The notes below the pieces were generated by a model, which was not told the DNA's origin, made no database searches, and saw only the letters and a program-made list of their open reading frames with translations. A stretch of DNA of 63,959 nucleotides, filler included. It is 6 parts of 6 records of this genome, joined end to end, with 100 filler letters (N's around TTAATTAATTAA, not from the genome) between each part and the next. Parts side by side here need not be neighbours in the genome. Positions count along the whole stretch, not along the records: positions 27,599 to 38,468 come from SRR31156797_13204; 5 more parts are not named here. The stretch is one strand, 5' to 3'. Both the position numbers and the translations under genes were made by a program. Below, in pieces: positions 27,499 through 44,919 of this stretch. The stretch's first letter is position 1, and the number at the start of each line of letters is the position of its first letter.

Positions 27499-27598
27499 NN
27501 NNNNNNNNNNNNNNNNNNNNNNNNNNNNNNNNNNNNNNNNNNTTAATTAATTAANNNNNNNNNNNNNNNNNNNNNNNNNNNNNNNNNNNNNNNNNNNN
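27499..27598. other. Artificial contig spacer
   Basis: N44-TTAATTAATTAA-N44. Confidence 0.99.
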
Positions 27599-27610
27599 GG
27601 CCTTGCGTTC

Positions 27611-27628
27611 GCCGCTCAACTTAACGTT
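27611..27628 (+). repeat. Possible right half of a degenerate attC site at the contig start
   Basis: GCCGCTCAACTTAACGTT resembles attC L'-spacer-GTT ends; CCGCTCAACTT recurs at 29795-29805; the bases after GTT do not fit RRRY. Confidence 0.35.
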
Positions 27629-27782
27629 TTTTACTCAATGTTTTCTTGGCGGCTGAACCACCGGCATGAATTAAAACAAATAATAGCAGGTTTTATGAAC
27701 TACTTAGCGCTGATCCACAAAGGTTATAAATGCAGATCTTTAAAGATTCTCAAGTGTCCTTTTATGTGAATCGGAGGTATAT

Positions 27783-29621
27783 ATGAGTAATGATGACTTA
27801 TTCAATAAATACGGTTTAGCAGGTTCTTCAATATATAATGACCTCACAAAAAACAAATCTATATTTGGTGATGTATTGGGAACGAAAAACCCCTTTGATA
27901 TTTCAAAGAATATTCTTAATGACCCTTTATCAATGCATCGTTTTAAGTCAGAAGCAGTGCAAGAGGAAAAGAAAGATATGACTCAAGAAGAACTGATTAA
28001 AATCATAATAGAGACTTCCGAGGAAGGAAAAACCGAATTAGAATTGGAATCGAATGGATTAAGGAATCTTCCGGCAGAGATAGGTAGCTTAAGGTTAATC
28101 GAAAAATTAGATTTATCCGAAAATAAATTACAAACATTGCCTGATGAATTCAATAAATTGGAAAATCTTTCCGTGCTCATTTTAAGTGAGAATCAATTTC
28201 GTGATTTTCCAGAAGTTATTTTTAAACTAAATAACTTAGAAGAAATTATCATTAACAACAATCGCCTTCGAGAACTTCCCGCAGGAATTAATGGATTAAA
28301 AAAATTATTGAAAATCGATCTCTCCAATAACAATTTACGAGATTTGCCAGATGATATCAAACTAACAAAGATTCAAGAACTCTTGTTATCGGACAATCAA
28401 TTCCGCGAACTACCTATTTCCATATGTGAACTCAGAGAATTGAGTCTATTGGACATATCAAATAATGAACTACGATCCTTACCAAAAGAAATTGGATCAC
28501 TTAGATCTCTTCAGGAATTTTTAATTTCATCTAATGAAATTTCGTATCTTCCTCAAGAGATTATTTACCTTTCGAGTTTACAACAACTTGATGTTTCAGA
28601 TAATGAGCTTATTGAACTCGTGGATGAAATTGGGTTGCTGGAAAACCTCACGAAACTATCTATCAAGAATAATATGCTTGAGTTATTGCCGGAATCGGTT
28701 GGGCAACTTTTGTCATTAAGAAAATTAGTTGTAAGTGGAAACAAATTAAATGAACTTCCATCAGAATTAGTAAACTGTGAATTCCTCGAAGAACTTGAAG
28801 TTGAAGACAATCCACTTGAATCTCCACCCAATGATGTAATAGAAAACGGACTACATGCCATTAAATTCTATTTTCTTTCAAAAGCAGTTCGTTTTTTTGA
28901 CACAAAATATAAAAGATATTCATTTAATTTTCCAAAAGAGATTAAAACAGCCTTTAAACAATATCTTTCATATTTTAATGAGTTCGTACATATAGCTAAA
29001 GGCAAAAATATAGGGTTTGAAGTTAGATCGACTAAAAAAGGAATTGAAATTGGTGTAAAAACTGAAAACGAGAGTGAAATTAAAGAGATTGGCGATTATT
29101 TTGAGGAATACATTAAATTTATTGAACAAAACATTGATGAATTGCGAGTAGACATCGATGCAGATATAACAAATGCTGAAAAAGATATATTGATTGTCGA
29201 ATTGAAAAATCAAGTTCGTAATTTTCAAACTGCGATTGAAATTAGAGATGTCAAACTAAGATTGCTTCAGGATGAAATGAAAAATTTACGTCAAATTATG
29301 TTAAATTACAGTAATAACCCTACTCCTATTGCACTAGATATATCAGTGGGAGTAGAAATTCAACAAACCATTGATCAAGTTCATCCAGAACATCTACCGA
29401 AAATTTTCGACGCCTTCCAGAATGAATTAACAAAAAACAAAGAACAATATTTGCAAAACTTAGCTGAATTGAATGATAGTTTAGAGTTCATTAAACGCCA
29501 AATAGATACGAGCAAGCCTAATATGTTTGGCATTAAGGAGAATTTAAAAACAATTTCGGACTTAATGGGAGGGACAGCAGCCAGTATTCTTGGTAATATT
29601 ATTACAGCCGGAGTTTTATAA
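27783..29621 (+). CDS. Leucine-rich repeat protein with unknown C-terminal domain
   Basis: About a dozen ~23-aa LxxLxLxxNxLxxLP repeats, capped by NPLESPP..VIENG..AIKFYF; GGAGG RBS. Confidence 0.9.
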   Translation: MSNDDLFNKYGLAGSSIYNDLTKNKSIFGDVLGTKNPFDISKNILNDPLSMHRFKSEAVQEEKKDMTQEELIKIIIETSEEGKTELELESNGLRNLPAEIGSLRLIEKLDLSENKLQTLPDEFNKLENLSVLILSENQFRDFPEVIFKLNNLEEIIINNNRLRELPAGINGLKKLLKIDLSNNNLRDLPDDIKLTKIQELLLSDNQFRELPISICELRELSLLDISNNELRSLPKEIGSLRSLQEFLISSNEISYLPQEIIYLSSLQQLDVSDNELIELVDEIGLLENLTKLSIKNNMLELLPESVGQLLSLRKLVVSGNKLNELPSELVNCEFLEELEVEDNPLESPPNDVIENGLHAIKFYFLSKAVRFFDTKYKRYSFNFPKEIKTAFKQYLSYFNEFVHIAKGKNIGFEVRSTKKGIEIGVKTENESEIKEIGDYFEEYIKFIEQNIDELRVDIDADITNAEKDILIVELKNQVRNFQTAIEIRDVKLRLLQDEMKNLRQIMLNYSNNPTPIALDISVGVEIQQTIDQVHPEHLPKIFDAFQNELTKNKEQYLQNLAELNDSLEFIKRQIDTSKPNMFGIKENLKTISDLMGGTAASILGNIITAGVL

Positions 29622-29678
29622 AAGTAATTTTTTATTGCTCCTAATTAAACCTGAGTTTCTCTTGAAACTTATCAGCAT

Positions 29679-29729
29679 TCCTAACAATGAACATTCTGAC
29701 GGATAAACCGCAGATGTTCCAAGTTAACA
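29679..29729 (+). repeat. attC-like integron recombination site
   Basis: TCCTAAC-AATGAA-CAT(T)CTG-(A)CGG-ATAAA-CCG-CAGATG-TTCCAA-GTTAACA: AAC/GTT core, unpaired spacer, two extrahelical bases; 23/24 nt shared with 38445-38468. Confidence 0.6.
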
Positions 29730-29880
29730 GGACACAGGGCTCGGGATGGACAATCGACTGATTATATGTTACCGCTGAAGCGTTAGCAGCGCGACCGCTC
29801 AACTTCGTTGAGACGGGTAAGCACAGCTAAAACTTCAGCGGCAATGAGGATGATAGCCCTTATCCCACTTCCCTCGTGCC

Positions 29881-29929
29881 TATTAACAAGCCGCTGCACT
29901 CAGACAAGCTTGTGAGTTAAATATTAAAA
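29881..29929 (+). repeat. Degenerate attC-like site upstream of mrr
   Basis: TATTAAC-AAGCC-GCT(G)CAC...GTGAGT-TAAAT-ATTAAAA; left half is typical of attC, GTT core changed to ATT. Confidence 0.45.
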
Positions 29930-29953
29930 ATCGAATAAAGAGAGAAAAAACAC

Positions 29954-30871
29954 ATGATCCCGAAATATGAAGAAATAATGCTGCCATTTCTTAAGTTTCT
30001 CTCAGATGGCAATGAGCATAGTTTAAGCGAAGCTCATGATGCATTGGCAAAACAGTTTCTGTTAAGGGATTCTGAATTGCGAGAGTTGCTACCAAGTGGC
30101 AGGCAACCCATATTTAGAAACAGAGTCGGCTGGGCAAGAACATATTTGAAGAAAGCCAAACTCTTAATTTCTCCCAAAAGAGCTCATTTCAAAATCAGTG
30201 AAAGAGGATTGGATCTTTTAAAAGAAAATCCCGATCAAATCACTTCTAAATTTTTAACCCGATATGAAGAATTCGTAGAATTCCAATCAATTAAAAAAGA
30301 TAAAAAAGAAAAGGGACAGGTGCCACAACCTCAGTCTATTAATGGCGCTGATCAGACTCCGGAAGAGTCGCTTGAAATGGCCTACCAGAAACTCCACGCC
30401 GAATTGTCGAAAGAAGTACTTGAAATTGTAAAATCATGCTCTCCTTCTTTCTTTGAAAACTTGGTCATCGACCTGCTTATCACCATGGGATATGGCGGTT
30501 CAAGAAAAGAGGCCGGGCAGGCAATGGGAAAATCAGGGGACGGCGGGATCGATGGACTCATTAAAGAGGATAAACTGGGTCTTGATGTGATATATCTTCA
30601 GGCGAAAAAATGGGAGAATGCAGTTCCTGTAAAAGAAATTAGGGATTTCACCGGTGCTCTTGCTTCCATGAAAGCCAAAAAAGGAATATTTATCACAACC
30701 TCAACTTTTCCGAAAAGTGCTTACGACTTTGTGTCTCAAGTCGAATATAAAATTATCCTGATCGATGGAGAGCATTTGGCTGATTTGATGATAGAAAACA
30801 ATGTCGGATTATCAACAATAAATACATATCAGGTCAAAACAATTGATTTTGACTATTTTGAAGATAATTAG
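29954..30871 (+). CDS. mrr: Mrr-family type IV restriction endonuclease
   Basis: Mrr_N wHTH (IPKYEEIMLP, FRNRVGWARTYL) plus Mrr_cat (FFENLVIDLL, GDGGIDG, YLQAKKW, KGIFITTS). Confidence 0.93.
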   Translation: MIPKYEEIMLPFLKFLSDGNEHSLSEAHDALAKQFLLRDSELRELLPSGRQPIFRNRVGWARTYLKKAKLLISPKRAHFKISERGLDLLKENPDQITSKFLTRYEEFVEFQSIKKDKKEKGQVPQPQSINGADQTPEESLEMAYQKLHAELSKEVLEIVKSCSPSFFENLVIDLLITMGYGGSRKEAGQAMGKSGDGGIDGLIKEDKLGLDVIYLQAKKWENAVPVKEIRDFTGALASMKAKKGIFITTSTFPKSAYDFVSQVEYKIILIDGEHLADLMIENNVGLSTINTYQVKTIDFDYFEDN

Positions 30872-30969
30872 CGAATTAAAGATCAAAGCCAATTTGACAC
30901 AATAATAATTTTTTCTAAATCCAAGTCATTATATTCCGATTCCGAAAATAACAATACTTGATATATATC

Positions 30970-30997
30970 TTGCATATGTCATAGCAGATGTTATAAA
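30970..30997 (+). promoter_or_regulatory. Putative sigma-70 promoter with overlapping operator for the defence operon
   Basis: TTGCAT-N16-TATAAA with extended -10 TG; imperfect palindrome ATAGCA-GA-TGTTAT in the spacer. Confidence 0.5.
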
Positions 30998-31035
30998 AAA
31001 CATGATATTATAATCAGAGAAGCGAAGGTAAAGTT

Positions 31036-31248
31036 ATGATCACAGGGCCTGAAAAATTCCCGGAATTGGTTAAAAAAGTTCGAAAGCAACTTGGAATAAG
31101 CCAGGAGGATCTTGCTCGCGCTTTGGGTGTCAGCTTTGCAACTGTGAATCGATGGGAGAACGCTAAAACTTCACCTTCAAAATTAGCGCGCACTCAATTT
31201 GATTTGTTTTGCGAGGATATGAAAAAAAAGGGACGGCTCAATGACTGA
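31036..31248 (+). CDS. XRE-family HTH regulator (controller-like)
   Basis: VRKQLGISQEDLARALGVSFATVNRWENAKTSP; overlaps the next gene. Confidence 0.9.
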   Translation: MITGPEKFPELVKKVRKQLGISQEDLARALGVSFATVNRWENAKTSPSKLARTQFDLFCEDMKKKGRLND

Positions 31249-31939
31249 TCTTCCCACTAATTTTTCAATCAAAAAGTGGCCGGAGGGAGAACGGCCCCGT
31301 GAGAAATTGATTCAGTTGGGCGCGGAAACTCTTACTGATGCCGAGTTGCTGGCAATTTTGCTTCGAGTGGGCAAAGCAGGATCATCTGCGATTGACATGG
31401 GACGACAACTCATTGACCAGCTGAATGGAATTTGCGGTATTGATCGGGCGCATGTTGAAGATCTTCTTAAATTCAAAGGTTTGGGACTTGCCAAAACTGC
31501 CCAGCTTAAAGCGGCCATCGAAATTGGAAAGCGCGTTCGACGGCAGAATGCCCTTCCGGTCTCATTTGAATCGGCAGATACTATCGCAGCTTTCTGTTAT
31601 CCAAAATTTGAGGGCAAAAGGTATGAAATCTTCCTTGCACTGCTTCTTGACGGACAAAACAACCTATTGGCAGAGCGTGTTATTTCAGAGGGGATACCAA
31701 CCCAATCTGTTGTCTATACGCGAAAAGTCATGGAAGAAGCCCTACGTCTTTCAGCAAGTGCCATCGTTGTTGTTCACAATCATCCTTCAGGAAAGGCATC
31801 ACCCTCTGGCCAGGATATCGAAACAACCCGTAAACTGAAACAAGCAGCCGATGTTTTGGAATTGCTTCTGCTGGACCATATCATTCTTGGGCGGGATCAG
31901 TATTATAGTTTCTCAGAGCATAAAAATATTTTGACATAA
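31241..31939 (+). CDS. radC: RadC (JAB/MPN domain) protein
   Basis: RPREKL, DAELLAILL, HhH GLGLAK, JAB motif HNHPSG..SPSGQD, LLDHII. Confidence 0.92.
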   Translation: MTDLPTNFSIKKWPEGERPREKLIQLGAETLTDAELLAILLRVGKAGSSAIDMGRQLIDQLNGICGIDRAHVEDLLKFKGLGLAKTAQLKAAIEIGKRVRRQNALPVSFESADTIAAFCYPKFEGKRYEIFLALLLDGQNNLLAERVISEGIPTQSVVYTRKVMEEALRLSASAIVVVHNHPSGKASPSGQDIETTRKLKQAADVLELLLLDHIILGRDQYYSFSEHKNILT

Positions 31940-31952
31940 AGGAGCCAGTACA

Positions 31953-34193
31953 ATGGCCGGCAAGACATATAAAAAAGCAGATGAAGTCCGAATTGACGGA
32001 AATAAGATTTTCAGTCCGGTTCGAAAAATGTGGCTTTCACTAACACCTGAGGAGCAGGTTCGACAACAATATCTGACCGTTCTGATTGATGACTACGGAT
32101 ATGACCTTGATCAAATAGACGAAGAGGTGAGTGTCACCGGTCGCGGCAGTGCCCAGGCCCGTGCTGATTTCGTCATATGGCGAACGGCAAAGGACAAAAC
32201 GGACCAGAAAGCACCTTTTATCATTATTGAATGCAAATCCGATAATGTAACGATTAAAGCGCCTGATTATGCACAAGGTGAGCATTATGCACGTATGGCA
32301 AACGCTCCTTTTTTTGTGACCCACAATTCCAGAGAAACCCGATTCTGGAGAGTCAAGAAAGATAAAATGCCGGGGTATATCGAAGAGATTGAAAACATAC
32401 CCCATGCAGAAGCATCGGATAAAGAAATCAAAGAGTTGTTATCCAAACTTCGAGTGTTCAAGGAAAAAGAATTTGCTGACCTGTTGCACCAATGCCACAA
32501 CGTGATCCGTAACCGGGAAAAAAAAGATCCTGCCGCAGCGTTTGATGAGATTGCTAAAATCCTCTTTGTAAAGGTTTGGGTGGAAAGGGAATTGAGTAAA
32601 AAGCGCAGGCGCCAAAACCTGTTCAGTGTAGATTTTTTAGAAGAACAACTCGGTGACAACCCGCTTGATATTCTTTTCACACAGACCAAAGAGACCTACG
32701 CCACAGACAAAATTTTCGAAGATGATGAGCGTATCAACCTGAAACCTGCAACCGGTACGGAAATTGTACGAAAACTTGAAAAATATAATCTGTCCGATAC
32801 CAGTGAGGATATCAAGGGCGTTGCCTTTGAACGATTCCTCGGCCGCACCTTTCGTGGGGAGATCGGCCAGTTTTTTACCCCGCGCTCCATTGTGGAGTTC
32901 ATGGTCCACATGGTGAATCCCACAGAAGGGGAAATCGTGTGCGACCCGGCCAGCGGTTCCGGCGGATTTCTCATTCGTGTTTTTGAAATTGTCAGGGAAC
33001 AGATCCTTGCCGATGCAGACAGGCAATATAATGAATACAAAGAGAAAATCCTGAAAAATAAGGAACTCGGAGAGGAAGACAAGGCCATTAAGCTTCGAAA
33101 ACAGTATGATAAAATCCAGAAAACCATTGATCAGCGTATAGAGAATTCCCGCCTATGGAAGCTTTCCAATAGATGCATTTATGGAACAGATGCCAATGAC
33201 CGGATGGCCCGGACCAGCAAGATGAACATGATCATGCACGGTGACGGTCATGGCGGTGTGCACCACCATGACGGATTTTTAAACGTCAACGGTATTTTTG
33301 AAGGCCGGTTTGATATCATCCTGACCAATCCGCCGTTTGGGGCAAATGTAGAACCCAGTGATAAAATCACGGAACAGGAAATCCAGGTTTCCAATAATGC
33401 TGCCAAACGGTACACAGATGAGTATGGCGAGCTTTATACTGAAGCCCAGGGCAAGGTAAAGGCGGCCGTAAACAAATCCATTGCCTCTTTGTTTAGCTTG
33501 CCGAAACGATCCGTCAAGAAAGGCCAAACGGTTTACGGGAAAATCAAAACTGAAATCCTGTTCATCGAGCGTTGCCTTGATCTGTTGAAACCGGGAGGAA
33601 GAATGGGAATCGTTCTTCCGGAAGGCATCTACAATAACCCGTCCCTGGCCCATGTCCGGGAATTCACCGAAGACCGGGCTTTTTTAAAAGCCGTGGTCAG
33701 CCTGCCCCAGGAAACCTTTGTCAGTTCAGGTGCCAGCGTAAAATGCTCGCTGCTTTTTTTGCAAAAGTACACGAAAGATGAAAAACAAACATTTGATCAG
33801 ACATATGGGGATGCAAAAACCGAAATCGACGACCTTTATGCTGATGAAATCGCAGAAGAGACCGAACGCCTGGAAGCCGCCATTACCGCAGCTAAGAAAG
33901 AGAAAGACACAGAAGGCCGGAAAGCTTTGCAAAAAGAACTCAGAGAATATGTAAAGCTTATGGATGCAAAGAAAACCGCTGAATCCCGCCAGCTTCTCAA
34001 GGACCGGTTTGACTATCCCATTTTCATGTATGAAGCGGAAAAGGTGGGTATTTCCGCCACGGGTGAAGAAGATTTAAATGAGCTGTATCCAACGGAAAGT
34101 CAAGTCAAGGATATTGAGAAGACCTGTCTGGAATGGTATCGGGAGTTTTTGGCTAATCCTGAGAAGTTTGCTGAAAATGGTGAGGTTGAGTAA
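31953..34193 (+). CDS. Restriction endonuclease-N6-adenine methyltransferase fusion (HsdR_N-like + HsdM-like; type IIB/IIG-like)
   Basis: PEEQVRQ...RADFVI...IIECK PD-(D/E)xK domain; GQFFTPR, DPASGSGGF (motif I), TNPPFG (motif IV); no helicase motifs. Confidence 0.9.
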   Translation: MAGKTYKKADEVRIDGNKIFSPVRKMWLSLTPEEQVRQQYLTVLIDDYGYDLDQIDEEVSVTGRGSAQARADFVIWRTAKDKTDQKAPFIIIECKSDNVTIKAPDYAQGEHYARMANAPFFVTHNSRETRFWRVKKDKMPGYIEEIENIPHAEASDKEIKELLSKLRVFKEKEFADLLHQCHNVIRNREKKDPAAAFDEIAKILFVKVWVERELSKKRRRQNLFSVDFLEEQLGDNPLDILFTQTKETYATDKIFEDDERINLKPATGTEIVRKLEKYNLSDTSEDIKGVAFERFLGRTFRGEIGQFFTPRSIVEFMVHMVNPTEGEIVCDPASGSGGFLIRVFEIVREQILADADRQYNEYKEKILKNKELGEEDKAIKLRKQYDKIQKTIDQRIENSRLWKLSNRCIYGTDANDRMARTSKMNMIMHGDGHGGVHHHDGFLNVNGIFEGRFDIILTNPPFGANVEPSDKITEQEIQVSNNAAKRYTDEYGELYTEAQGKVKAAVNKSIASLFSLPKRSVKKGQTVYGKIKTEILFIERCLDLLKPGGRMGIVLPEGIYNNPSLAHVREFTEDRAFLKAVVSLPQETFVSSGASVKCSLLFLQKYTKDEKQTFDQTYGDAKTEIDDLYADEIAEETERLEAAITAAKKEKDTEGRKALQKELREYVKLMDAKKTAESRQLLKDRFDYPIFMYEAEKVGISATGEEDLNELYPTESQVKDIEKTCLEWYREFLANPEKFAENGEVE

Positions 34194-35605
34194 TGTCGCA
34201 ACAGATAGCACCTCAAAAACGGCCAAGCTTTCTGAAGTGGTCTGAAATTCAGAAATGGACATCAACCGCCAGTTTACTTCGTTTCAAAAATATTCCTGAA
34301 GACTGGCGGTTGCTTAAGGTTTCTGATTTTGCAACCTTGCTCAATAACAAAGAATCTGTAGTGCCTGATAAAAACTATCAAATGGCAGGGGTTAGATGGT
34401 ATGGGGAAGGTGTTTTTCATCGTGAAACTGTCCTCGGTAAAGATCAGAGTGCGAGCTATCTTTCGCCTTTAAAACAAAATACTGTTATTTACAACCGGCT
34501 TTTTGCTTGGAAAGAATCTTTTGCCGTCGTTACCGAAGAAAGCAACGGCCTTTATGTTTCAAACGAATTCCCACAATTCGAAATTGATAAGCAGGTAGCA
34601 CTTCCAGACTATATCTATTTGCTATTCATTTCAAAAAAGTTAATCAGAGTAGTTAATGCGTCATCAGTGGGTTCTTCAGCTGTCAGCAGGAATCGGTTCA
34701 AGGAAAATGATTTCTTGGATTTCAAAGTCCCCATTCCTCCCCTCCCAATTCAAAACCAAATTGTGGAGCACTGGAAAACTCTAACTGGAAGCATTAATAG
34801 CCGTATCGCTTTATCAAAAAAAATTACCAACCGTATCCCGCACATGCTGGTTACTGAAGTTGGGTTGCATGGTTTGGGAAAAACCCATTCAAGGCGGGCT
34901 TTTCGAACCACATGGCGAAAAATTGAGAGATGGGGGGTTAACATAGCCCGTGAGATGACCCGTAAGCCAGATTTGAAAGCAAGTCCATTTCCTATTGTAT
35001 CTCTTTCAGACGTTATTGAAGATTTGCAAAATGGATGGAGCCCGAAATGTCATACAAGGCCGGCACAGATTGAAGAATGGGGTGTCTTAAAAGTTGGTGC
35101 TGTGTCGTTTGGTTGGTTTGATGAGAGTCAAAATAAAGCACTACCTAAGAGTCTCAAACCATTAAAACAGCATGAAGTGGCCTCGGGAGACTTAATAATC
35201 AGCCGTGCCAATATTACTCAATATGTCGGAGCTTGCGCACTAGTTAATCAAGTCCGTTCCAAGCTTATGCTATGCGATAAGCTTTTTCGTGTTGTTTGGA
35301 AAACGGATTCGTTGATTTTGCCCGAATATTTAAATGAGATACTTAAGATCCCTCATTTACGATGGCAGATTGAGAATAAACTCACGGGTGCATCTCCGAC
35401 AATGAAAAACATCTCGAAACCAGCGTTGCTCTCTTTAAAGTTCCCCCTTCCTCCATTAGAGATTCAAAGAAAAATAATGGATATAATTGAAGCAAGAAGA
35501 GAAGAGTCTCGGACATTATTGTCTGGAGCCCAAAAAAAGCAGGAAGAAGTTTCAAAACAGATGGAGAAACTAATCCTCGGGACCCTGTCAGTGGAGGACC
35601 TCTGA
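34193..35605 (+). CDS. HsdS-like specificity subunit with two TRDs
   Basis: Two TRD/conserved-helix units ending VPIPPLPIQNQIV and FPLPPLEIQRKIM; TAATG coupling to the upstream gene. Confidence 0.88.
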   Translation: MSQQIAPQKRPSFLKWSEIQKWTSTASLLRFKNIPEDWRLLKVSDFATLLNNKESVVPDKNYQMAGVRWYGEGVFHRETVLGKDQSASYLSPLKQNTVIYNRLFAWKESFAVVTEESNGLYVSNEFPQFEIDKQVALPDYIYLLFISKKLIRVVNASSVGSSAVSRNRFKENDFLDFKVPIPPLPIQNQIVEHWKTLTGSINSRIALSKKITNRIPHMLVTEVGLHGLGKTHSRRAFRTTWRKIERWGVNIAREMTRKPDLKASPFPIVSLSDVIEDLQNGWSPKCHTRPAQIEEWGVLKVGAVSFGWFDESQNKALPKSLKPLKQHEVASGDLIISRANITQYVGACALVNQVRSKLMLCDKLFRVVWKTDSLILPEYLNEILKIPHLRWQIENKLTGASPTMKNISKPALLSLKFPLPPLEIQRKIMDIIEARREESRTLLSGAQKKQEEVSKQMEKLILGTLSVEDL

Positions 35606-35606
35606 T

Positions 35607-37238
35607 ATGTCTCGCGGTCGTCAATACATTCAATTTGAGGGATATTTTGCCGAAAGCGTATTAGGCATCTTCCGTATTATCCGGGGCTTTGCCGATCTGC
35701 AGGACTTGGCGGCTGTTTCCGTACCCTATGAGATGACCGGCCATGAAACAGAGCCCATGCGTGTTGTGGGTCACCAGCGAGAGTTGAATGCAAAGCATGC
35801 AAGGGATATTAAAAAATACCTGGAACAAAGTGACAACCGGTTTATTCCGGAAGTGGTGCTTTCGGTCCGTGTGCCGGTGAACCCGGTGGATGTGGATCGG
35901 GGTGTCGTACTGGAGATTGATGAACCTCCAACCCAGATTATTGGTATTCAGAGTGATGAGACAACACCGGTTACCATAAAACGCAGATACGGGAGCAAAA
36001 CCACCCGAATTCAGACGGTCCGGATACCCCGGCAGGATCTGGAACAGGTTAAGGCTAACAAACTGATCCGCCGTATCGACGGCAATCACCGTCTGGCGCT
36101 TGCTGAACACCTTGTGGAAGATATCAACCTGCCCTCCAAGTTTCTGGCCCCATTCTGTATGGTGCTGTTGGGATCTGTTGACAATGATGCGGATGATTAC
36201 GCAGAGTCCCTCATCTTCCACACGATCAACAATACTGCCCTGCCATTGGAATCGGAACACGGCCTGCGGCTTTTGCTGGGTCAGAATTCCGATTATGACA
36301 TGACACCGGAAAATGAATTTAATTACAGCCCGGAACTCTATCTAACCCGTCTGCTGGCACAAAAGTTAGAGGGTCTGCCTCAACCTGCGCAGGATCGATT
36401 CGGCACCCGCCCGCTGACTGCATTGTGGGATGCGGCCCGCAATCTGATTGCCATGGATACGGCCATTGCCGAATCAAAGCAGGCGATTGATCAGTTTGCC
36501 CAAGACCTGTTTGCAGGCTTGGCAGATATCATGGTGCGGCTGACAGTGAATCATCCGTCTTTGTGTAAAACTTATTCTTTTCTTGAATTGACTTCTCGAA
36601 TCTGGAATGAAGCAACAGGGAACCATGAAGAACGTGTCAATTCTTCTGTCCAACTGCTTGACCGGATCGGTAAATGGTTGGGCAATGAGGGGATCACGGG
36701 GCTTTTGAACCCCTCTTCTCCGGCAGAACAATTGCTCACTACCTTTAAGGCAACTCAGAACAGAATACCTAAAAAGGTGTTTCTGGCCCGGTGGTATCCC
36801 CCGGTTGATGCATTGAACGATGCCTACAATAAAGCCGGTTTACGCCTTGAGCAGCTGCGGCAAACATTAAAATCTATAAAAGATGAGCACGGCCTTCCAC
36901 TCGATTTGATCGATATGGGAACCCAGGAAGGGGGGACCTTTCCAATTCATAACAAAATGTACGAAGCCATTGCGGGATCTGAAATTATAATTTGCGATTT
37001 AACCGGACACCGTCCAAATGTATATGTGGAAGCCGGTTATGCCCTTAAACATCATGAGCAAAATCGGTTGATCTATCTTTTTGAACCTCAAGACGCAGAT
37101 GACAGAGTGCCTTTTGATTTGAACACCTTCAAATATGTCCCCATATCACAGGCCGCAGAAATACCCGGAAAGTTAAAACCGGAAATCATTGCCATTTTGA
37201 AAGACGCCGGAGCAACAATTGATGGAGGTAATCTATGA
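35607..37238 (+). CDS. DGQHR (DndB/ParB-like) domain fused to C-terminal nucleoside 2-deoxyribosyltransferase-like domain
   Basis: GHQREL...IDGNHRL...IFHTIN signature; C-terminal [26 protein letters not shown]...VPFDL. Confidence 0.75.
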
Positions 37239-38275
37239 CTGGATTTAACCCCATATTTACCATAACCAACCGCATGACATCTGCCATCACCCAAATTGAG
37301 CGGGCCCGGGGTTTTCTGGAAGCCGCAAGATTATCCGACGACTGGGTAAGGGATATGGGAAACCAGGCCCTTATAAAAGAGGCCCATCATACCACACATA
37401 TCGAGGGAACAAGGCTGACATTGGATCAGGCTGAACGCTTGTGGAAAGGTGAAGCGGTGCCTGAAGCCGATCCGGATGATACCAGAGAACTGTTGAACTA
37501 CCGGACTGCTTTTGAATTTGTATCCCAATGTCTGGATAGTGGAGATCCCATTACCGAAGGAATGGTACGTGAAATTCACCGAAAGCTGGTTGAGGGAGTT
37601 CGAGGCGGAAAAGCAGATCCGGGAAACTATCGGCGGATTCAAAATTATGTGGCCAATTCATCTACAGGTGAAGTGATTTATACACCACCATCTGCCGTAG
37701 AAGTACCGATTATGATGTCTGAATTGGTTAAATGGCTGAATTCGGATCTTGAAATCCACCCGGTCTTGATCAGTGGGATCGCTCAATTCCAACTGGTCCA
37801 TATCCATCCGTTCCTTGACGGTAACGGGCGAGCTTCAAGGCTATTGTCAACCCTCTGCCTTTACAAGGCCGGATATGATTTCAAACGTCTGTTCACCATC
37901 AGTGAATATTATGATCGTGACAGACCGACTTTTTATAAAAAAATTCAAAGTGTTCGTGAAAACGACATGGATATGACCGGATGGCTGGATTATTTCATCT
38001 CCGGCTTGGAAACTCAAATGATTGAGGTCAAAGAGCGTGGCGAACAGGTGATTCGAAGGGATATTTTAACACAGAAGCACAACTTGAATGAAAGGCAAGC
38101 AAAAGCAATTGAATACATTCTCCAGCATGATAGACTGACTATCCAGAATTATGAAGGACTATGTCCAGAAGTAAACCGACGCAGTTTGCAGCGTGATCTT
38201 AAAGGAATGATTGAAAAGGAACTGATTGGCAGTGAAGGAGCAACAAATCAGTTGGTTTATTTTTTAAAGGTATGA
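37235..38275 (+). CDS. Fic-family protein (class II type, N-terminal inhibitory motif) with C-terminal wHTH
   Basis: [12 protein letters not shown] catalytic loop, TTHIEG matches (S/T)xxxE(G/N), C-terminal LNERQ...[15 protein letters not shown] overlap with the upstream gene. Confidence 0.93.
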
Positions 38276-38333
38276 GCTTGCGACATCTTATGACAGAAAC
38301 TTGTGACAAACTCATGACAAAGCTTGCGACATC
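38275..38333 (+). repeat. Five direct repeats of CTYRYGACA
   Basis: Copies start at 38277, 38287, 38300, 38311 and 38323; first and last share AGCTTGCGACATC. Confidence 0.8.
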
Positions 38334-38434
38334 AGCAAAGCCAGTACAAAAAGCTGAAGATACCTCTGAGTATCTCTGAATAAATCCATATACCTTTATT
38401 TCAAACCTGGCGGAGTTCCAATAGGAATACCGAA

Positions 38435-38468
38435 TACTAACAAAAACATGCTGACGGATAAACCGCAG
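38435..38468 (+). repeat. attC-like site truncated by contig end
   Basis: TACTAAC-AAAAA-CAT(G)CTG-(A)CGG-ATAAA-CCG-CAG, near-identical to 29679-29713. Confidence 0.6.
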
Positions 38469-38568
38469 NNNNNNNNNNNNNNNNNNNNNNNNNNNNNNNN
38501 NNNNNNNNNNNNTTAATTAATTAANNNNNNNNNNNNNNNNNNNNNNNNNNNNNNNNNNNNNNNNNNNN
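38469..38568. other. Artificial contig spacer
   Basis: N44-TTAATTAATTAA-N44. Confidence 0.99.
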
Positions 38569-38662
38569 ATTTCCAATTATTTTTTCGCAGAATGGCAATA
38601 TACAAAATACAGCATTGGTTGTCAAGTAAATAACACGTGAAAAAAAATAACCTCTTTTGTAT

Positions 38663-39412
38663 TTAAGTCAGTATTATTTCTGATATTTCATGAGCAAATT
38701 GCTCAGAAACCAATCTATCATTCACTAAAAACTCATGTATAGCTTTTTTCCAAGCCTGAAGATAATCTCTTGATTCCATAAAATTATCGAAGGCCAAACT
38801 ACCAACATCTGAAATACTAATTCCAAAACACCTATATATTAAACGAAATTTAGACACAGGAATTAACGTGTGTTTATATTCATCATATATAATATCCATG
38901 CTATCGATCATTTCAGCTTGTGCACCAGAATTTATTTTATCAACCCTTCTCCGTGGATTTGAATCTTGTGAAATTCCAATATGCAATTTAATAATATCTA
39001 GCCCTTGCTTAAAGTTTTCACATTTAAACTCATTATCTTTCAATTCTTGATTGCTCGATAAAATACTTTGTATTAAAACAACTAATGGATATATAACTAT
39101 GGTTTTAAACTGTATTTTTTTAGAATCATCTTCACGGTAACTAATTCGATGATACTTTAATTGAAGTTTATTTATAATGGATGCCTCTAGTCCTGAATCT
39201 TCCCAAATCGAAATAATTGCTGTTGGATATAAACTTTCTAAAACAATAGAATCCCTTTCAATTTTCCTTAGGGTATCAATTTTTATGGTTTCAGGAATAG
39301 ATATTTGATATCTCTCTACATTAAAAAAGTCTTTTAACCACAACTCATCTTTATGCTCTTTTCCTTGCCTAAAGAAAAAGCCTAATTGATCAATACCTAT
39401 TACTCTATCCAT
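38663..39412 (-). CDS. Hypothetical protein
   Basis: 249-aa open frame co-oriented downstream of mlaF; no motif recognised. Confidence 0.65.
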   Translation of the reverse strand: MDRVIGIDQLGFFFRQGKEHKDELWLKDFFNVERYQISIPETIKIDTLRKIERDSIVLESLYPTAIISIWEDSGLEASIINKLQLKYHRISYREDDSKKIQFKTIVIYPLVVLIQSILSSNQELKDNEFKCENFKQGLDIIKLHIGISQDSNPRRRVDKINSGAQAEMIDSMDIIYDEYKHTLIPVSKFRLIYRCFGISISDVGSLAFDNFMESRDYLQAWKKAIHEFLVNDRLVSEQFAHEISEIILT

Positions 39413-39438
39413 ACTCTCATCTAAAATCCATATTTTAT

Positions 39439-40191
39439 TTAGTAATTTTCTTTAATTCTTTTAAAGAGCTCCGAGGCAAAAACAAAATTATTTAATTCTT
39501 CCTCTTTGGCTGAAAGTATTTCCTCCTTATTCCCTTCCCAAAGTTTCTTTCCTTGATATATATAAATAATTTTTTCACCCATTCCCATAACAGAATTCAT
39601 ATCGTGGGTATTTATAATCGTTGTAATTCCATACTCCTTCGTTATTTCATATATTAAGTTGTCAATTACTATAGCCGTTTTAGGATCTAAACCGGAATTG
39701 GGTTCATCACAGAATAGATATTTTGGATTTAAAGCAATAGCACGGGCTATCGCAACTCTTTTTTGCATTCCTCCACTTATTTCTGATGGATAAAGACGAT
39801 TCACATTTTCAAGGTTTACCCTATTCAAACAAAAATTAACGCGCTCTTTCTTTTCTTCCGTACTTTTATTTGAAAACATATCCAATGGAAATTGTACATT
39901 TTCTTCAACCGTTAATGAGTCAAACAATGCAGAACCTTGAAACAACATTCCTATTTCTTTTCTGATTTTTTTCTGCTCCTTTAAAGTCATCTCAGAAAAA
40001 ACCTGATCTCCGTAAATAATCTGACCTGAATCAATGGAATGTAATCCAACAATTGATTTTAACAATACAGTTTTACCATGACCACTTTGACCGATTATCA
40101 AATTAGTTTGGCCTGCCTCAAATTTTGCAGAAACATCAAATAATATTTGTTTACCTTGAAAAGACTTATTTACCCCTTTAACTTCAATCAT
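39439..40191 (-). CDS. mlaF: MlaF-family ABC transporter ATPase
   Basis: GQSGHGKT, FQGSALFDSLTV, ISGGMQKRVAIARA, DEPNSGLDP. Confidence 0.9.
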   Translation of the reverse strand: MIEVKGVNKSFQGKQILFDVSAKFEAGQTNLIIGQSGHGKTVLLKSIVGLHSIDSGQIIYGDQVFSEMTLKEQKKIRKEIGMLFQGSALFDSLTVEENVQFPLDMFSNKSTEEKKERVNFCLNRVNLENVNRLYPSEISGGMQKRVAIARAIALNPKYLFCDEPNSGLDPKTAIVIDNLIYEITKEYGITTIINTHDMNSVMGMGEKIIYIYQGKKLWEGNKEEILSAKEEELNNFVFASELFKRIKENY

Positions 40192-40928
40192 GCCAACAAG
40201 AGTTGTGTTAGTAATAAATTAAATAATAGTATTTGAATACTACTTACCACTACGGCTTTTGTACTGGCAACCCCAACTTCTAACGAACCTCCTCTGACAT
40301 AATATCCTTTGTAAGAAGAAATAGATGCAATAAGAAATGCAAAAACACTAGATTTAATTAATGCATATCCTATATAAAATGGCTTAAATGCATACCTAAT
40401 ACCATAGATATAATCCACAGACGGAACCTCACCTGTTATAGAACCGGCTAGCCAACCTCCAAAAATTCCTATTCCCATACTCAGAATAACCAAAAGGGGC
40501 ATCATTAAAAGTAAACCTAAAATTTTGGGCAAGACTAAAAAGCCTGCTGAATTAATACCCATTATCTCAATAGCATCAATCTGCTCAGTAACTCGCATAG
40601 TTCCAATTTCTGAAGCTATGTTCGACCCAACTTTACCTGCTAATATCAATCCCACAATTGTTGAGGAAAACTCTAACAACACAGAATCACGTGCTGCTAA
40701 TCCAATAGTATACTTCGGTATAAAAATCAAATCAATATTATAAGCTGTCTGCAATGTAATGACAGCACCCATAAAAAAAGATATAATAGCTACAATTCCA
40801 ATTGAATTAATGCCTAATTTTTCCGCCTCTCTTACTACCTGATTAAATAATACAGTATGCTTTTCCGGTCGTGCAAAAACCCTTTTTAAAAAAACACTAT
40901 ATCTTCCTAATTCATATAAATATTGCAT
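40188..40928 (-). CDS. mlaE: MlaE-family ABC transporter permease
   Basis: AGKVGSNIASEIGTMRVTEQIDA, VGVASTKAVV. Confidence 0.92.
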   Translation of the reverse strand: MQYLYELGRYSVFLKRVFARPEKHTVLFNQVVREAEKLGINSIGIVAIISFFMGAVITLQTAYNIDLIFIPKYTIGLAARDSVLLEFSSTIVGLILAGKVGSNIASEIGTMRVTEQIDAIEIMGINSAGFLVLPKILGLLLMMPLLVILSMGIGIFGGWLAGSITGEVPSVDYIYGIRYAFKPFYIGYALIKSSVFAFLIASISSYKGYYVRGGSLEVGVASTKAVVVSSIQILLFNLLLTQLLLA

Positions 40929-41071
40929 ATAGTAAAATGATTTGCGCTAAAAATAGCAACTATATTCAGGCTATGAAAATAAATTTGAAATAGAGTACAT
41001 ATCGGTTTTAATTATTAAGCATTTTGGGTATTTTCACCTTCAATAAAAAATTGAATTTAATTTTATTAATA

Positions 41072-42151
41072 ATGACTGGTAATACATATTGCGTAATTAT
41101 GGCTGGAGGAATCGGTAGTCGATTTTGGCCAATAAGCCGAGAAGAAACTCCTAAACAGTTTTTAGATATACTTGGAACCGGAAGAACATTTATTCAACAA
41201 ACCTACGATAGGTTCTCATCACTATGTCCTGCTGAGAATTTTTTAGTCGTGACTAGCGTTGAGTATAAAGAAATGGTTTTAGAGCAACTTCCTAGCTTAA
41301 AACCAGAACAAGTATTAACAGAACCATTCCGTCGTAATACAGCACCATGTATAGCATATGCAAATGCATGGATTCAAAAAAGAAATTCAGAGGCTTCTAT
41401 AATAGTTACACCAGCAGACCACCTTATCCTTAAACAAGATGATTTTATATCTGTAGTTTCAAAAGGTTTGGATTTTGTTAATAATAATGAGGCTTTATTG
41501 ACAATAGGTATAAAACCACATCGACCAGAAACTGGTTATGGATATATTCAAGTTGGTGATGACTCTCCTAAAACACTTGGCGAAATTGAACCTGTGAAAA
41601 CATTTACAGAGAAACCTAATCTTGAATTAGCTAAGGTATTTTTTGAAAGTGGAGAGTTCTTTTGGAACTCCGGAATATTTATCTGGTCTTTAGCTTCTAT
41701 CAATAGTGCTTTTGATCAATATCTACCTGATGTAAAAAATCTCTTTGACAGTATCGATTCCGAGATAAATACGCATAACGAAGAAAATGCCATTAAGGAG
41801 ATTTATCAGGAATGCCCAAATATATCCATTGATTATGGAGTAATGGAAAAAGCTTCTAATGTTTCTGTATTAACCGCAGACGTTGGGTGGAGTGATTTAG
41901 GAACCTGGTCTTCTCTATATGAACACTCCAGTAAGGATGATAATAATAATGCTATTAACACAGGTAAGGTCTTAGCTTATGATTCCAAAAATTGCGTAGT
42001 TAATCTTCCTAATGATAAAATGGCTGTAATACAAGGACTAGATGGTTATATCGTTGCAGAATCACACAACTGTTTATTAATCTGTCCAAAATCTAACGAA
42101 CAACAGATACGTCAGTTTTCTGCAGATATCATATCTGAATACGGTAAATAA
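41072..42151 (+). CDS. manC: Mannose-1-phosphate guanylyltransferase
   Basis: IMAGGIGSRFWP..PKQF, RNTAPCI, PADH, ETGYGYI, FTEKP, WNSGIF, SIDYGVMEK, WSDLGTW. Confidence 0.93.
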   Translation: MTGNTYCVIMAGGIGSRFWPISREETPKQFLDILGTGRTFIQQTYDRFSSLCPAENFLVVTSVEYKEMVLEQLPSLKPEQVLTEPFRRNTAPCIAYANAWIQKRNSEASIIVTPADHLILKQDDFISVVSKGLDFVNNNEALLTIGIKPHRPETGYGYIQVGDDSPKTLGEIEPVKTFTEKPNLELAKVFFESGEFFWNSGIFIWSLASINSAFDQYLPDVKNLFDSIDSEINTHNEENAIKEIYQECPNISIDYGVMEKASNVSVLTADVGWSDLGTWSSLYEHSSKDDNNNAINTGKVLAYDSKNCVVNLPNDKMAVIQGLDGYIVAESHNCLLICPKSNEQQIRQFSADIISEYGK

Positions 42152-42173
42152 TCTTTCCGACAAATATGAAAAC

Positions 42174-43991
42174 AAAAAAGAGGGTGTCCAAAAATGGATG
42201 CCCTCTTTTTTGTTACATAAAATACTGAAATTCAATAAAATAAGCTTGTTTTAATTTTCTTATATGCCTGATATTTAATATCTTAAAGGTATGAAAAACA
42301 TATCCTTTAAAGAGTACAGCCAAGGCCAGACAGAGTTGTTTCCCGCAAGATTAGATGAATTCATACCAGAAGATGCTCCGGTTCGATTGGTCAGTGACAT
42401 TGTTGACAAACTTGACATATCTTTTATTGTATCTGGATACAAAGAGGGAGGTTGCAGGGGATACCATCCCAAAATGATGCTGAAGGTGATGTTTTTTAGT
42501 TACCTGAGCAATGTGTACTCGTGCCGCAAAATGGAGGCCGCACTTAAGGAGAGCATACATTACATGTGGCTGTCGGGCAAGCAGTTTCCAAAGCACAGCT
42601 GCATCAATGACTTTAGGGGCAAACGGCTGAAAGAGCACATCAACCGGTTGTTCACGCAAGTGGTACTGATGTTGGTCGATCTGGGCTATCTGAGCTTGGA
42701 TGTGCAATACATCGATGGGACAAAAATAGAAAGTTCTGCCAACCGTTATACTTTCGTCTGGCGCAAATCAGTAGAGCGCTATAAGTCAAAATTGGAAGTA
42801 AAGATCAAAGGTATACTAGCCCAGATAGACGAAGGCATACAGGAAGACAACAAGCCAACAGAAGAAGCCATAGGGGTTGTGGACTCACAAACCCTGCAAG
42901 AAAAAATAGCCGAACTGAACGAACAGAACAAAGCCCAAACTAAAGAACAGAAGAAACTGCTGAAAGAACTGGAGACCAAACACCTCCCAAAATTGGAGGA
43001 GTACGAACAAAAGCTGGGTGACATTGGCAAGAACCGTAACTCCAGTTCTAAAACTGACAAAGAGGCCACCTTTATGCGGATGAAGGAAGACCACATGAAG
43101 AACGGCCAGTTGAAGCCAGCATACAATATCCAGATCAGTACCGAGAACCAGTTCATCACCAACTTTGCTCCTTACCAAAATCCCACAGACACAAGGACAC
43201 TGATCTCCTTTTTAAACAGTTTTAAAAACAAGTACGCAAAACAGTCCAAAGAGGTGGTTGCCGACTCAGGATATGGAAGCGAAGAGAATTACGACCATAT
43301 GGAAGAGGAGGCTATCGAAGCTTATGTCAAGTTCAATTATTTTCACAAAGAGCAAAAGAAAGCTTTCAAGACAGACCCGCATAAAGTAGAAAACCTCCAC
43401 TACAACCCATCCGGAGATTACTTTGTTTGTCCCATGGGACAGCACATGCGGCCTGTTGCGGAATATGAAAAAACAAACGCATCGGGTTATGTCAGCCAGA
43501 TAAAAAAATACCAGGCCAAAAATTGCAGTCGTTGCCAAATGAGAGGAAGGTGCTTTAAGGGAGAAGGAAACCGGAACATAGAGGTCAACCATAATCTGCG
43601 AAGGCACAAACAAAAAGCCAGGGAGATGCTCAACAGCGAAGAAGGACTCCAGCACAGGAGCAACAGACCAATAGAACCGGAAGCGGTATTTGGCCAGATC
43701 AAACAAAATAAAGGTTTTAAGAGATTTACATTAAAGGGACTAGATGGCGTCAACCTTGAATTTGGCCTGATTGCCATTGCCTTGAACATCGGGAAATGGG
43801 CTAGAAAAGAAGCTGAAAAAGCAAAAGAGGCTATTGTTTTATCAATCCAAAACCTTTTTTATGTCATAGGGGCGCTCATTGCATCTTATATTGTAATCTT
43901 AAAGAAAAATAAGTTGTTGTCCTTTAAACTCTAAAAATCAGAAATTTCAATAAGCAAAAAGAGGATGTCGTTTTTGGACACCCTCTTTTTT
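42174..43991 (+). mobile_element. IS1182-family insertion sequence (exact ends ambiguous)
   Basis: Transposase bounded by inverted sequences AAAAAAGAGGGTGTCCAAAAA (42174-42194) and TTTTTGGACACCCTCTTTTTT (43971-43991); visibly higher GC than the flanks. Confidence 0.85.
42291..43934 (+). CDS. IS1182-family DDE transposase
   Basis: [77 protein letters not shown]. Confidence 0.95.
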
Positions 43992-44020
43992 TTATATTGT
44001 ATTTCTTCTTATCCTTTACT

Positions 44021-44896
44021 CTAGAATTCCCATAAATCATGCTCAAACATAAAAATGTCATTTTTGATTCTTTCAGATTCAATCATTGCTTCACTACCTA
44101 CAGCATATTGCTCTATACCTCTATTGTTATATACGTTTGACTCTCTAACAATATAACTACCAAAGAACCTTTTCATAAAAATGTCATCAAAAGTACGACG
44201 TTGCGCATCATTACGAGGATTAAACACTTCATTACGTGCAAATAAATCTCTTGCCTGAGGGAAATAAATCCAAAAAGCTTGTTTTCTTGCTATCTGAGCT
44301 TCCCCACCTTCACCAGATGGTTTTTCATACTCTCTGATTGGACATAAACCAATTATACGTACATCCAATCTAGAATAATTTCTGTCAAAAAACCAAACTT
44401 CTTTTACCAATATTTGCTTAACCTCCTCAGGTCTTAATTCTCCTGACACAATTTGTTCTGCATATGTACCATCATCTTGACGTACCTGCAAAGTATCACC
44501 TACAGCACCCATTTCATAAAGAACTTCATCCACCGACATTGGAACCTTAAATTCATCCTCAGTTTTAGTTGAATAGGCTGTTAAACCCTCATATCTGATA
44601 CCATGCATTAGTAATTGAGTTAAGCTAAAGCGTCCGTCCATTGTTGTAACCGGGTAATATAATGGTAAATTAATTTTTTCCCTTAGATCAATAACACGCC
44701 ATACCTTTTTAGCCCACATAACATCAGCCTCGCGAACATGTGGATATGGTATAGGCTTTCTGTTTAAAACATGTTCTTTAGGATAAATTCCATCCAAAAC
44801 ATTTTGAGCTTCAACTTTATAAGTTCCAGCCAATGCAATGAAAACGATGAATAAGAAGAATAACTTTTTCATTATAATAGGTTTTAATTTTCTCAA
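44021..44896 (-). CDS. gldN: Gliding motility / T9SS protein GldN (PorN)
   Basis: READVMWAKKVWRVIDLREKINLPLYYP, KEVWFFD, FEHDLWEF; last gene of the gldKLMN operon. Confidence 0.92.
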   Translation of the reverse strand: MRKLKPIIMKKLFFLFIVFIALAGTYKVEAQNVLDGIYPKEHVLNRKPIPYPHVREADVMWAKKVWRVIDLREKINLPLYYPVTTMDGRFSLTQLLMHGIRYEGLTAYSTKTEDEFKVPMSVDEVLYEMGAVGDTLQVRQDDGTYAEQIVSGELRPEEVKQILVKEVWFFDRNYSRLDVRIIGLCPIREYEKPSGEGGEAQIARKQAFWIYFPQARDLFARNEVFNPRNDAQRRTFDDIFMKRFFGSYIVRESNVYNNRGIEQYAVGSEAMIESERIKNDIFMFEHDLWEF

Positions 44897-44919
44897 TTGA
44901 TATATTTTATAATCTAATT

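Follow-up and report, generated by a model that had tools for sequence, protein, structure and literature searches.

The gene described here encodes a protein that we regard as a promising candidate for a new anti-phage effector, accessory to a restriction-modification (RM) module. It occupies positions 35607..37238 on the plus strand of the stretch of DNA analyzed (the window), which is 63,959 nucleotides (nt) long and consists of six parts of six records joined by fillers of 100 N, the joined parts not necessarily being neighbors in the genome; positions 27,599–38,468 come from SRR31156797_13204. Based on the open reading frame (ORF) and its translation, the focal gene (P0001) specifies a protein of 543 amino acids (aa) with an N-terminal DGQHR/ParB-like half and a C-terminal domain resembling nucleoside 2-deoxyribosyltransferases (NDTs) and TIR domains. 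It lies directly behind the genes for a nuclease-methyltransferase fusion (M) and an HsdS-like specificity subunit (S), a position that is nearly obligate among its relatives; it diverges in step with M, and the M-S pair can dispense with it. In our estimation there is an even chance that the protein is an optional, M-S-dependent, second-line accessory effector in which a switch of the ParB type, gated by nucleoside triphosphate (NTP), is coupled to an N-glycosidase. Its binding to M-S, its trigger, its substrate and its effect on phages are what we infer.

The conserved residues of the protein were determined across a large family. A homologue search returned 610 relatives at E ≤ 0.001 out of 8000 scored candidates, the family amounting to 535 representatives of 50%-identity clusters, and conservation was read from an alignment of 37 full-length members that are 23–79% identical to the query. 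Invariant in all 37 are Q57, R58, P81, E82, R156, D158-G-N-H-R162, C184, F204, W357, F392, N471, V472, E475 and G477, while D464, F503 and D504 are conserved in at least 90%. The motifs concerned are G55-H-Q57-R58, I157-D-G-N-H-R-L163 (36075–36095), F204-H-T-I-N208 and P502-F-D-L505, together with a C-terminal motif of 16 residues (464–479, nt 36996–37046) that starts at D464, runs through 11 further residues to position 475 and ends in AGYA. Because they are invariant over such a range of identity, we consider the motifs selected features and not chance strings. That ParB-type and Glu-centered residues alike are invariant also argues that both halves may be active, the one as a nucleotide-dependent switch and the other as an N-glycosidase.

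A model of the full-length protein (predicted local distance difference test, pLDDT, 83.8) and the associated profile searches divide it into three regions. Residues 1–215 (35607..36251, plus strand) form a domain that profiles and invariant residues mark as a divergent DGQHR/DndB-type member of the ParB superfamily (G55HQR58, P81E82, R156-x-D158GNHR162, F204xxxN208). Its signature, D158-G-N-H-R162 (36078..36092, plus strand), is DGQHR with Q replaced by N and is invariant in the 37-member alignment. Residues 216–385 (36252..36761, plus strand) are all-helical in the secondary structure of the models, with W357 invariant and R248 nearly so. Residues 386–536 (36762..37214, plus strand) have a flavodoxin-type fold of the NDT/TIR kind, and fold and profile matches suggest that the domain is an effector that would cleave N-glycosidic bonds. 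The codon of Glu475 (37029..37031, plus strand; motif NVyvE.GY) is invariant in the alignment, and the profile search sets it on the Rcl/DNPH1 catalytic Glu. The initial annotation, which was made from the letters of the window alone, had proposed just this pairing of a DGQHR/DndB-like N-terminus with an NDT/TIR-like C-terminus, and both calls were borne out by the matches described below. The motifs that it quoted are all present in the translation with the Glu intact, the ORF is open over the coordinates given, and the junctions are as it described them. The TGA stop of the hsdS-like ORF (35603–35605) is followed by a single base and then by the focal ATG at 35607, and the ATG of the downstream fic gene at 37235 overlaps the focal TGA (37236–37238) as ATGA.

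Of the two halves, the C-terminal domain is the more readily placed by structure. In VIA-align comparisons, residues 386–536 matched MilB best (Z 13.9, root-mean-square deviation 3.3, 136 residues aligned), followed by a conserved Enterococcus protein (7m5h, Z 13.2), the TIR domain of SfSTING (7un8, Z 12.3), TIRAP (Z 12.0), NDTs (Z 11–12; 7o62, Z 12.3) and Rcl (Z 11.6), although sequence identity to solved structures was only 9–17%. Foldseek, by which the initial annotation had wanted this half checked, likewise placed it among NDT-like folds, with MilB at 6.8e-4 and MilB, NDTs, DNPH1 and BcmB all at E ~1e-3. When the family profile was compared with the PDB, Rcl/DNPH1 was found at 8.3e-5 (range for DNPH1, 8.3e-5 to 0.02), and the alignment set 'NVyvEvGyA' on the Rcl sequence 'GVGYELGRA', such that E475, invariant in 37/37 members, falls on the Glu that we take to be the nucleophile of Rcl. 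Other profiles point to TIR domains: the PADLOC model PDLC00733 for a CBASS TIR effector matched at 1.9e-10 over profile positions 271–350 of 388, and Pfam CAP12-PCTIR_TIR (PF10137) was found in 11/37 relatives (best 1.2e-4). Nuc_deoxyrib_tr (PF05014) was found in 14/37 (best 7e-9), the window protein itself having no match to it at E ≤ 0.1. By these profiles and folds, the domain would occupy a place intermediate between NDTs and TIRs of the CAP12 type, two branches that cleave the bond between a ribosyl or deoxyribosyl moiety and a base. In NDT itself the catalytic residue is cited as Glu98 (PMC3710099).

The identity of the closest solved relatives suggests a different role for the protein, namely that both halves act to destroy hydroxymethylated or otherwise non-canonical nucleotide precursors, the ParB-like half by hydrolyzing NTPs or dNTPs and the NDT-like half as an NMP/dNMP N-glycosidase like MilB and DNPH1, so that a phage would be unable to modify its DNA and would remain sensitive to the RM enzyme. 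MilB acts on hydroxymethyl-CMP and DNPH1 carries the name '5-hydroxymethyl-dUMP N-hydrolase', making the nearest relatives specific for hydroxymethyl-pyrimidine nucleotides. A modification-dependent system inside a Type I RM cluster is a documented complement to it (PMC11411939), and DndB has been proposed to target modified nucleotides made by phages (PMC10853773). However, substrate specificity does not carry over with a fold match, PADLOC and Pfam also put the domain near the CAP12-type TIRs that cleave NAD+, and an enzyme of this kind would not need the strict position behind hsdS that is described below. We consider this role rather unlikely.

The N-terminal half is a more distant member of its superfamily. 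The NCBIfam DGQHR profile TIGR03187 matched residues 30–216 at 4e-8, its 33.3 bits being below the cut-off of 58.85; the dnd-associated DGQHR model TIGR04172 (4.3e-5) and DpdB (0.038) were also under their curated cut-offs, as was Pfam DndB (PF14072; E 0.0058 in the window protein, 16.2 vs. a cut-off of 29.1). Among the 37 relatives, DndB was found in 20 at E ≤ 0.1 (best 1.4e-5) and GmrSD_N in one. The order of elements expected of DndB/DGQHR proteins, QR followed by DG-x-HR and FxxxN, is kept in Q57-R58, D158-G-N-H-R162 and F204, all invariant, and in N208, which is conserved in at least 90%; the canonical DGQHR motif is presumably the one that gave the family its name. A separate model of residues 1–385 (pLDDT 85; predicted TM-score 0.77) had as its best structural neighbor the ParB-N domain of pNOB8 (Z 7.0, a value in the 'common' range of VIA-align; root-mean-square deviation 5.3, 203 residues aligned), with the ParB-like PadC next (Z 5.5). 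Foldseek gave no match to this model at E ≤ 0.001, and its top rows (Noc, ParB and SspE) all had E > 0.1. The middle domain had weak helical-bundle matches alone (Z 5–6) and belongs to no recognizable family. From the profiles and motif order we read residues 1–215 as a divergent DGQHR/DndB branch of the ParB superfamily.

The closeness of this half to DndB profiles invites the interpretation that the protein is a regulator, whose ParB-like half would bind DNA or ATP and control the expression or activity of M-S, with the C-terminal domain serving as a ligand pocket of the SLOG/TIR type. DndB has been described as an ATP-modulated negative regulator of its own modification operon (PMC10853773 and PMC12707154), and the dispensability of the focal gene would suit a modulator. 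The invariance of Glu475, N471 and G477 over 23–79% identity would be unexpected for a mere ligand pocket, however, no helix-turn-helix was detected, and the gene is the last of the conserved unit and not the first. We hold a regulatory role to be unlikely.

M (31953..34193, plus strand), the conserved upstream partner, is a protein of 746 aa with Pfam matches to HSDR_N_2 (8.2e-25) and N6_Mtase (7.3e-36) and a full-length match to the PADLOC model MTase_I (PDLC03018). It consists of an N-terminal PD-(D/E)xK domain (D72, E93-x-K95, Q108xxxY112) followed by a gamma-class N6-adenine methyltransferase (MTase) domain (NPPF at 459–462). The residues D72, E93-x-K95 and Q108 are 98–100% conserved in 66 homologues, and Y112 is conserved in at least 90% of the 11-row alignment A3, so that M carries a complete PD-(D/E)xK plus QxxxY signature of a putative nuclease. 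S (34193..35605, plus strand), of 470 aa, has two target recognition domains, two stretches of Pfam Methylase_S (2.1e-18) and a match to PADLOC Specificity_I (3.4e-53). Near the operon, the ORFs of 150 aa or more in the window include no HsdR. Because M has an intact nuclease domain and HsdR is lacking nearby, the M-S pair looks like a motor-less, BcgI-like RM enzyme that, to judge from its domains, is seemingly complete by itself; in the BcgI layout a nuclease-MTase subunit is paired with an S-like subunit. The 'RM operon' of the initial annotation thus stands as far as M and S are concerned but not as a classical Type I system, HsdR being lacking and the nuclease domain lying within M.

Relatives of the focal gene are tightly linked to such pairs. 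In a first protein-anchored scan, which gave 11 loci (nine in which the gene is intact and two with internal deletions), M-S was directly upstream in 11/11. A profile-based scan of representative genomes of 185,579 species then gave 373 loci, and neighborhoods were counted in the best 80. In 67 of these the gene was called and upstream sequence extended for 4 kb or more (11 were excluded for short upstream sequence and two for want of a called gene), and an hsdM-like gene was upstream on the same strand in 65 of the 67. In those loci hsdS was identified by phmmer in 50, and in 15 more by way of a divergent cluster represented by a Methylase_S protein. The two exceptions are a disrupted locus (L048) and one (L081) in which an hsdR-like ORF fills the upstream sequence available. 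The initial annotation had linked the gene to RM and had called for a survey of neighborhoods, and in that survey the link held. Linkage persists down to 27% identity and over >12 phyla, and the upstream junction is +1 nt in 22/78 loci and −4 nt in 21/78. The pairwise identities of M and the focal protein co-vary (Mantel r 0.70, with 0/999 permutations as high), whereas S is shuffled (rho 0.19). A predicted complex of M 166–746 with focal residues 1–385, made without alignments, scored 0.00 against a mark of 0.34, a result that speaks neither for nor against binding.

These counts also bear on whether the gene might simply be a defence or toxin gene in its own right, sharing a hotspot with M-S but having no functional connection to it. 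The slot after hsdS does host many unrelated defence genes, and the presence of the focal gene is unclustered on the M tree, as described below. Against co-location are the 65/67 loci with M-S upstream, down to 27% identity, the +1 or −4 nt junctions in 43/78, and the co-divergence with M. In addition, a search of 72,556 plasmids found no relative save one partial domain match in Leisingera, and 50,697 phage records contained none. We regard mere co-location as improbable. The Leisingera plasmid match (L092, 6933–9176) is a 747-aa 'N-6 DNA methylase' with a stretch 32% identical to focal residues 131–255, possibly the product of a fusion between a methylase and a ParB-like domain.

The reverse comparison, anchored on M, showed that the dependence is one-way. 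Fifty-five of 80 M loci were assessable (nine lacked a called M ORF and 16 had <3.3 kb downstream), and the focal gene was present in 23 of them and missing from 32. On a tree of 50 M proteins its presence changes at least 16 times, 12 of the changes being forced by supported branches, compared with a mean of 16.8 for shuffled labels. Among the 32 loci that lack the gene, five still have its first 36–101 codons directly after hsdS; these 5′ stubs are at L098 10556–10675, L104 10553–10855, L107 10556–10663, L153 10535–10699 and L173 2651–2782. The remnants with internal deletions in the first survey also lie right after hsdS (L010 10001–10351; L011 5855–6007). M keeps D72/E93/K95/Q108/Y112 and NPPF in 23/23 loci with the gene and in 27/27 without it. 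Loss of the focal gene has occurred repeatedly, in each case from beside an M-S pair that remains intact; the focal protein needs the M-S core and the M-S core does not need the protein. Where the gene is missing, the third slot is either vacant or taken by DUF6119, a KAP NTPase, a kinase with a superfamily 1 helicase, or GIY-YIG/RAMA; a Flammeovirga plasmid has an OLD-like ABC-ATPase/TOPRIM protein there.

It could still be argued that the protein is the restriction subunit that replaces HsdR in a new, HsdR-less type of RM, M-S recruiting it to unmethylated sites where the ParB-like domain would load on the DNA as an NTP-gated clamp, the NDT-like domain would excise a base, as a restriction glycosylase, and the M nuclease would cut. 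No HsdR lies near the operon in the window, and an HsdR-sized plus-strand ORF within 10 kb after the gene was found in 0/9 intact loci of the first survey, where ten flanking ORFs compared with Pfam were not HsdR. The gene occupies a frequent hsdR position and co-diverges with M, and NDT chemistry is the cleavage of a base-deoxyribose bond, NDT domains having been predicted to act on DNA (PMC3710099). This explanation is made quite unlikely by the 32/55 M-S modules that have the same invariant nuclease and MTase motifs without the gene, by its repeated loss, and by three relatives in Firmicutes (L078, L081 and L088; ~28% identity) in which the gene follows a complete classical M (526 aa)-S-HsdR (1040–1067 aa). 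An essential replacement of HsdR was rejected, since every nuclease and MTase motif persists in M-S modules that lack the gene, and its loss is repeated. In a related scheme, which we consider just as doubtful, the protein would be the effector of a methylation-guided restriction not described so far: M-S would load an NTP-gated ParB-like clamp at unmethylated sites and the NDT-type domain would excise a base or, in the manner of DpdA/DpdB, exchange one; if this were true, a specificity system of the Type I style would guide a DNA glycosylase or transglycosylase in place of a translocating nuclease. A 353-aa truncated HsdR (HSDR_N and the start of SWI2/SNF2) was observed just upstream of M in a Nitrospiraceae locus (L039, 3241–4302), perhaps as a remnant of an ancestor, or of a neighbor, that was a classical Type I system.

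The asymmetry of the dependence, the close coupling, the divergence in step with M and the recurrent decay together are the reason why we favor an optional, possibly costly accessory effector; the same features would be a misfit for an essential subunit or for an unrelated neighbor, both of which they render unlikely. For such an accessory effector we propose the following mechanism. The N-terminal ParB-fold domain would presumably bind, and perhaps hydrolyze, a nucleoside triphosphate, and it may bind DNA. It would act as a switch that answers the state of nucleotides or DNA, or the state of the M-S complex, and its activation would bring C-terminal domains together. The C-terminal domain, with its intact catalytic Glu, would then hydrolyze a ribosyl- or deoxyribosyl-base N-glycosidic bond, the candidate substrates being NAD+, (modified) nucleotides or DNA bases. 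The outcome would be a second line of defence once restriction alone fails. The initial annotation had likewise pictured a guard, one that would sense inhibition of the RM enzyme or changes in nucleotides and would then destroy nucleotides or NAD+ or produce a signal.

Several points weigh against this accessory effector. Neither domain of the window protein attains a curated family cut-off (TIGR03187, PF14072), and the fold match of the N-terminal half is weak, given its 'common'-range Z and the empty Foldseek result. The fold of the C-terminal domain by itself cannot tell an enzyme from a ligand-binding sensor of the SLOG/TIR type, and its nearest structural neighbors, MilB and DNPH1, use free nucleotides and not NAD+ or DNA. 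A regulatory role like that of DndB would equally explain the tight linkage to a modification module, and frequent loss from a slot shared with unrelated defence genes also fits co-location in a hotspot.

In its logic the proposed effector most resembles PrrC in EcoprrI, described as a guardian that fires upon inhibition of the RM enzyme (PMC12707154). Both are accessory genes located within or after a Type I-like M/S(/R) cluster (Type IC for EcoprrI) and dispensable for restriction, and both proteins join an N-terminal half for nucleotide binding to a C-terminal one for catalysis, functions that are predicted in the case of the focal protein. PrrC, however, joins an ABC-type ATPase to a tRNA (anticodon) nuclease, unlike the ParB/DGQHR and NDT/TIR-like domains of the focal protein, whose RM module is without HsdR. 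The focal protein was accordingly not assigned to PrrC on its domains, although its position in an M/S cluster is that of PrrC.

In architecture the closest systems are GmrSD, SspE, BrxU and TgvAB, the last of which resides within a Type I RM cluster (PMC11411939). These also consist of an N-terminal ParB-superfamily NTP-binding domain followed by a C-terminal effector, but they pair DUF262 with an HNH/DUF1524 nuclease, whereas the focal protein pairs the DGQHR/DndB branch with an N-glycosidase-type fold. Rare metagenome proteins combine related parts: P0216 and P0274 are GmrSD_N (DUF262) plus NDT-like, and P0215 is Methylase_S (a partial HsdS target recognition domain) plus NDT-like. Two of them were considered as Rosetta-stone fusions and set aside, P0216 because 65% of it, from the N-terminus, matches a common Roseburia GmrSD at 100% identity and there are only two full-length clusters, and P0215 because it is a singleton; all three proteins may be natural recombinants, assembly chimeras or deletion products.

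DndB and DpdB share with the focal protein the motifs QR, D-G-x-H-R and FxxxN and likewise accompany a DNA-modification module, and DndB has been proposed as a possible nucleotide-targeting co-effector (PMC10853773). Unlike the focal protein they are without the helical and NDT/TIR-like domains, and the partner of the focal protein is an N6-adenine methylase with S and not a set of dnd or dpd genes. The C-terminus shares its fold with the NDT superfamily (MilB, BcmB and Rcl/DNPH1, Z 12–14), including a Glu after the central strand, and its 'RPNVxxExGY' resembles the profile of the TIR effectors of the CAP12/Pycsar type. NDT domains have been predicted as Abi (abortive infection) toxins acting on DNA (PMC3710099). 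The focal domain differs from both groups in being the C-terminal module of a 543-aa protein with no CD-NTase or cyclase gene nearby: neither a CD-NTase nor a pyrimidine cyclase was found among the annotated neighbors or the recurrent neighbors of the 80 loci.

MADS couples methylation to effectors other than HsdR, for example an OLD-like ATPase-nuclease (PMC13662399). M matches MAD2 (301 bits, cut-off 720) and S matches MAD5 (40 bits vs. 400), both below the cut-off; other mad genes are not among the annotated neighbors and the operon is without OLD-like ATPase/nuclease genes. The passages of the literature compared report no DGQHR/NDT protein for either MADS or BcgI (Type IIB). Membership in Dnd, Dpd, CBASS/Pycsar or MADS was rejected, as partner genes are lacking and scores are under the cut-offs. 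In particular, no dnd, ssp or dpd partners were present among the annotated ORFs at 27.8–43.9 kb, in agreement with the initial annotation, which had also recognized no named system in this fusion. That view was upheld as well: PADLOC v2 (in which there were only partial domain matches), Pfam and NCBIfam hold no name for the protein, the ESM Atlas offers nothing beyond clusters called 'hypothetical protein' or DndB, and full-text literature searches, whose coverage did not extend to subscription journals, supplementary tables, DefenseFinder or REBASE, found no description of the fusion or the family.

The focal protein is thus a candidate RM-tethered accessory effector without an existing name. 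If our reading is true, it is an unnamed and widespread defence accessory, present in >12 bacterial phyla and one archaeon, and an N-glycosidase module joins the set of known RM-tethered effectors. The near-absolute dependence on M-S, set against frequent loss, makes the recruitment of back-up functions by RM systems testable. The M-S pairs are of interest in their own right: HsdR-less pairs of a nuclease-methylase and S appear to make up a large class, modular and for the most part undescribed, in which the third slot can be exchanged and which connects classical Type I systems with BcgI-like and MADS-like ones. In Acidithiobacillus, a plasmid-borne relative of M consists of one nuclease-MTase protein of 922 aa that extends past the MTase domain.

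The remaining genes around the operon vary among relatives. Besides M and S, the recurrent neighbors in the 80 loci were RadC upstream (20), Mrr (11) and ABC-type genes (7), and no downstream family recurred in more than five of the 80. Downstream or intervening genes were assigned by Pfam to Fic, DUF6880, RhuM, PRiA4_ORF3, GIY-YIG/RAMA, an HD protein, HEPN_LA2681, YhcG/DUF1016, Ymh, HNH and DUF4238. In the window, the Fic-domain gene (37235..38275, plus strand; Pfam Fic 6.4e-17, PADLOC SoFic 2.7e-63) is a variable downstream passenger outside the conserved unit, a Fic-like gene being found in only 5/80 relatives' loci. It is translationally coupled to the focal gene, and its match to NCBIfam SoFic reached only 78 bits vs. 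a cut-off of 550. The first gene of the apparent operon encodes a RadC-like JAB protein (31241..31939, plus strand; Pfam RadC 1.7e-38) and ends 13 nt upstream of M; its homologues in the 20/80 loci are on the same strand. No intrinsic terminator-like site was found on the plus strand from the start of M to the end of fic.

Further upstream, an Mrr-type Type IV restriction enzyme (29954..30871, plus strand; Pfam Mrr_cat and Mrr_N, PADLOC mREase_IV 4.1e-87) and a 612-aa leucine-rich repeat protein, together at 27783–30871, make a small defence cluster with the RM operon. The G+C content of the operon is 41–47% vs. 31–38% in its surroundings, and it is 25–38% over long stretches of 14000–30000 and 38000–58000 vs. 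~49% at 1–14 kb. The region has the look of a mosaic made up of acquired DNA. A transposase of the IS1182 family was observed at 42291–43934.

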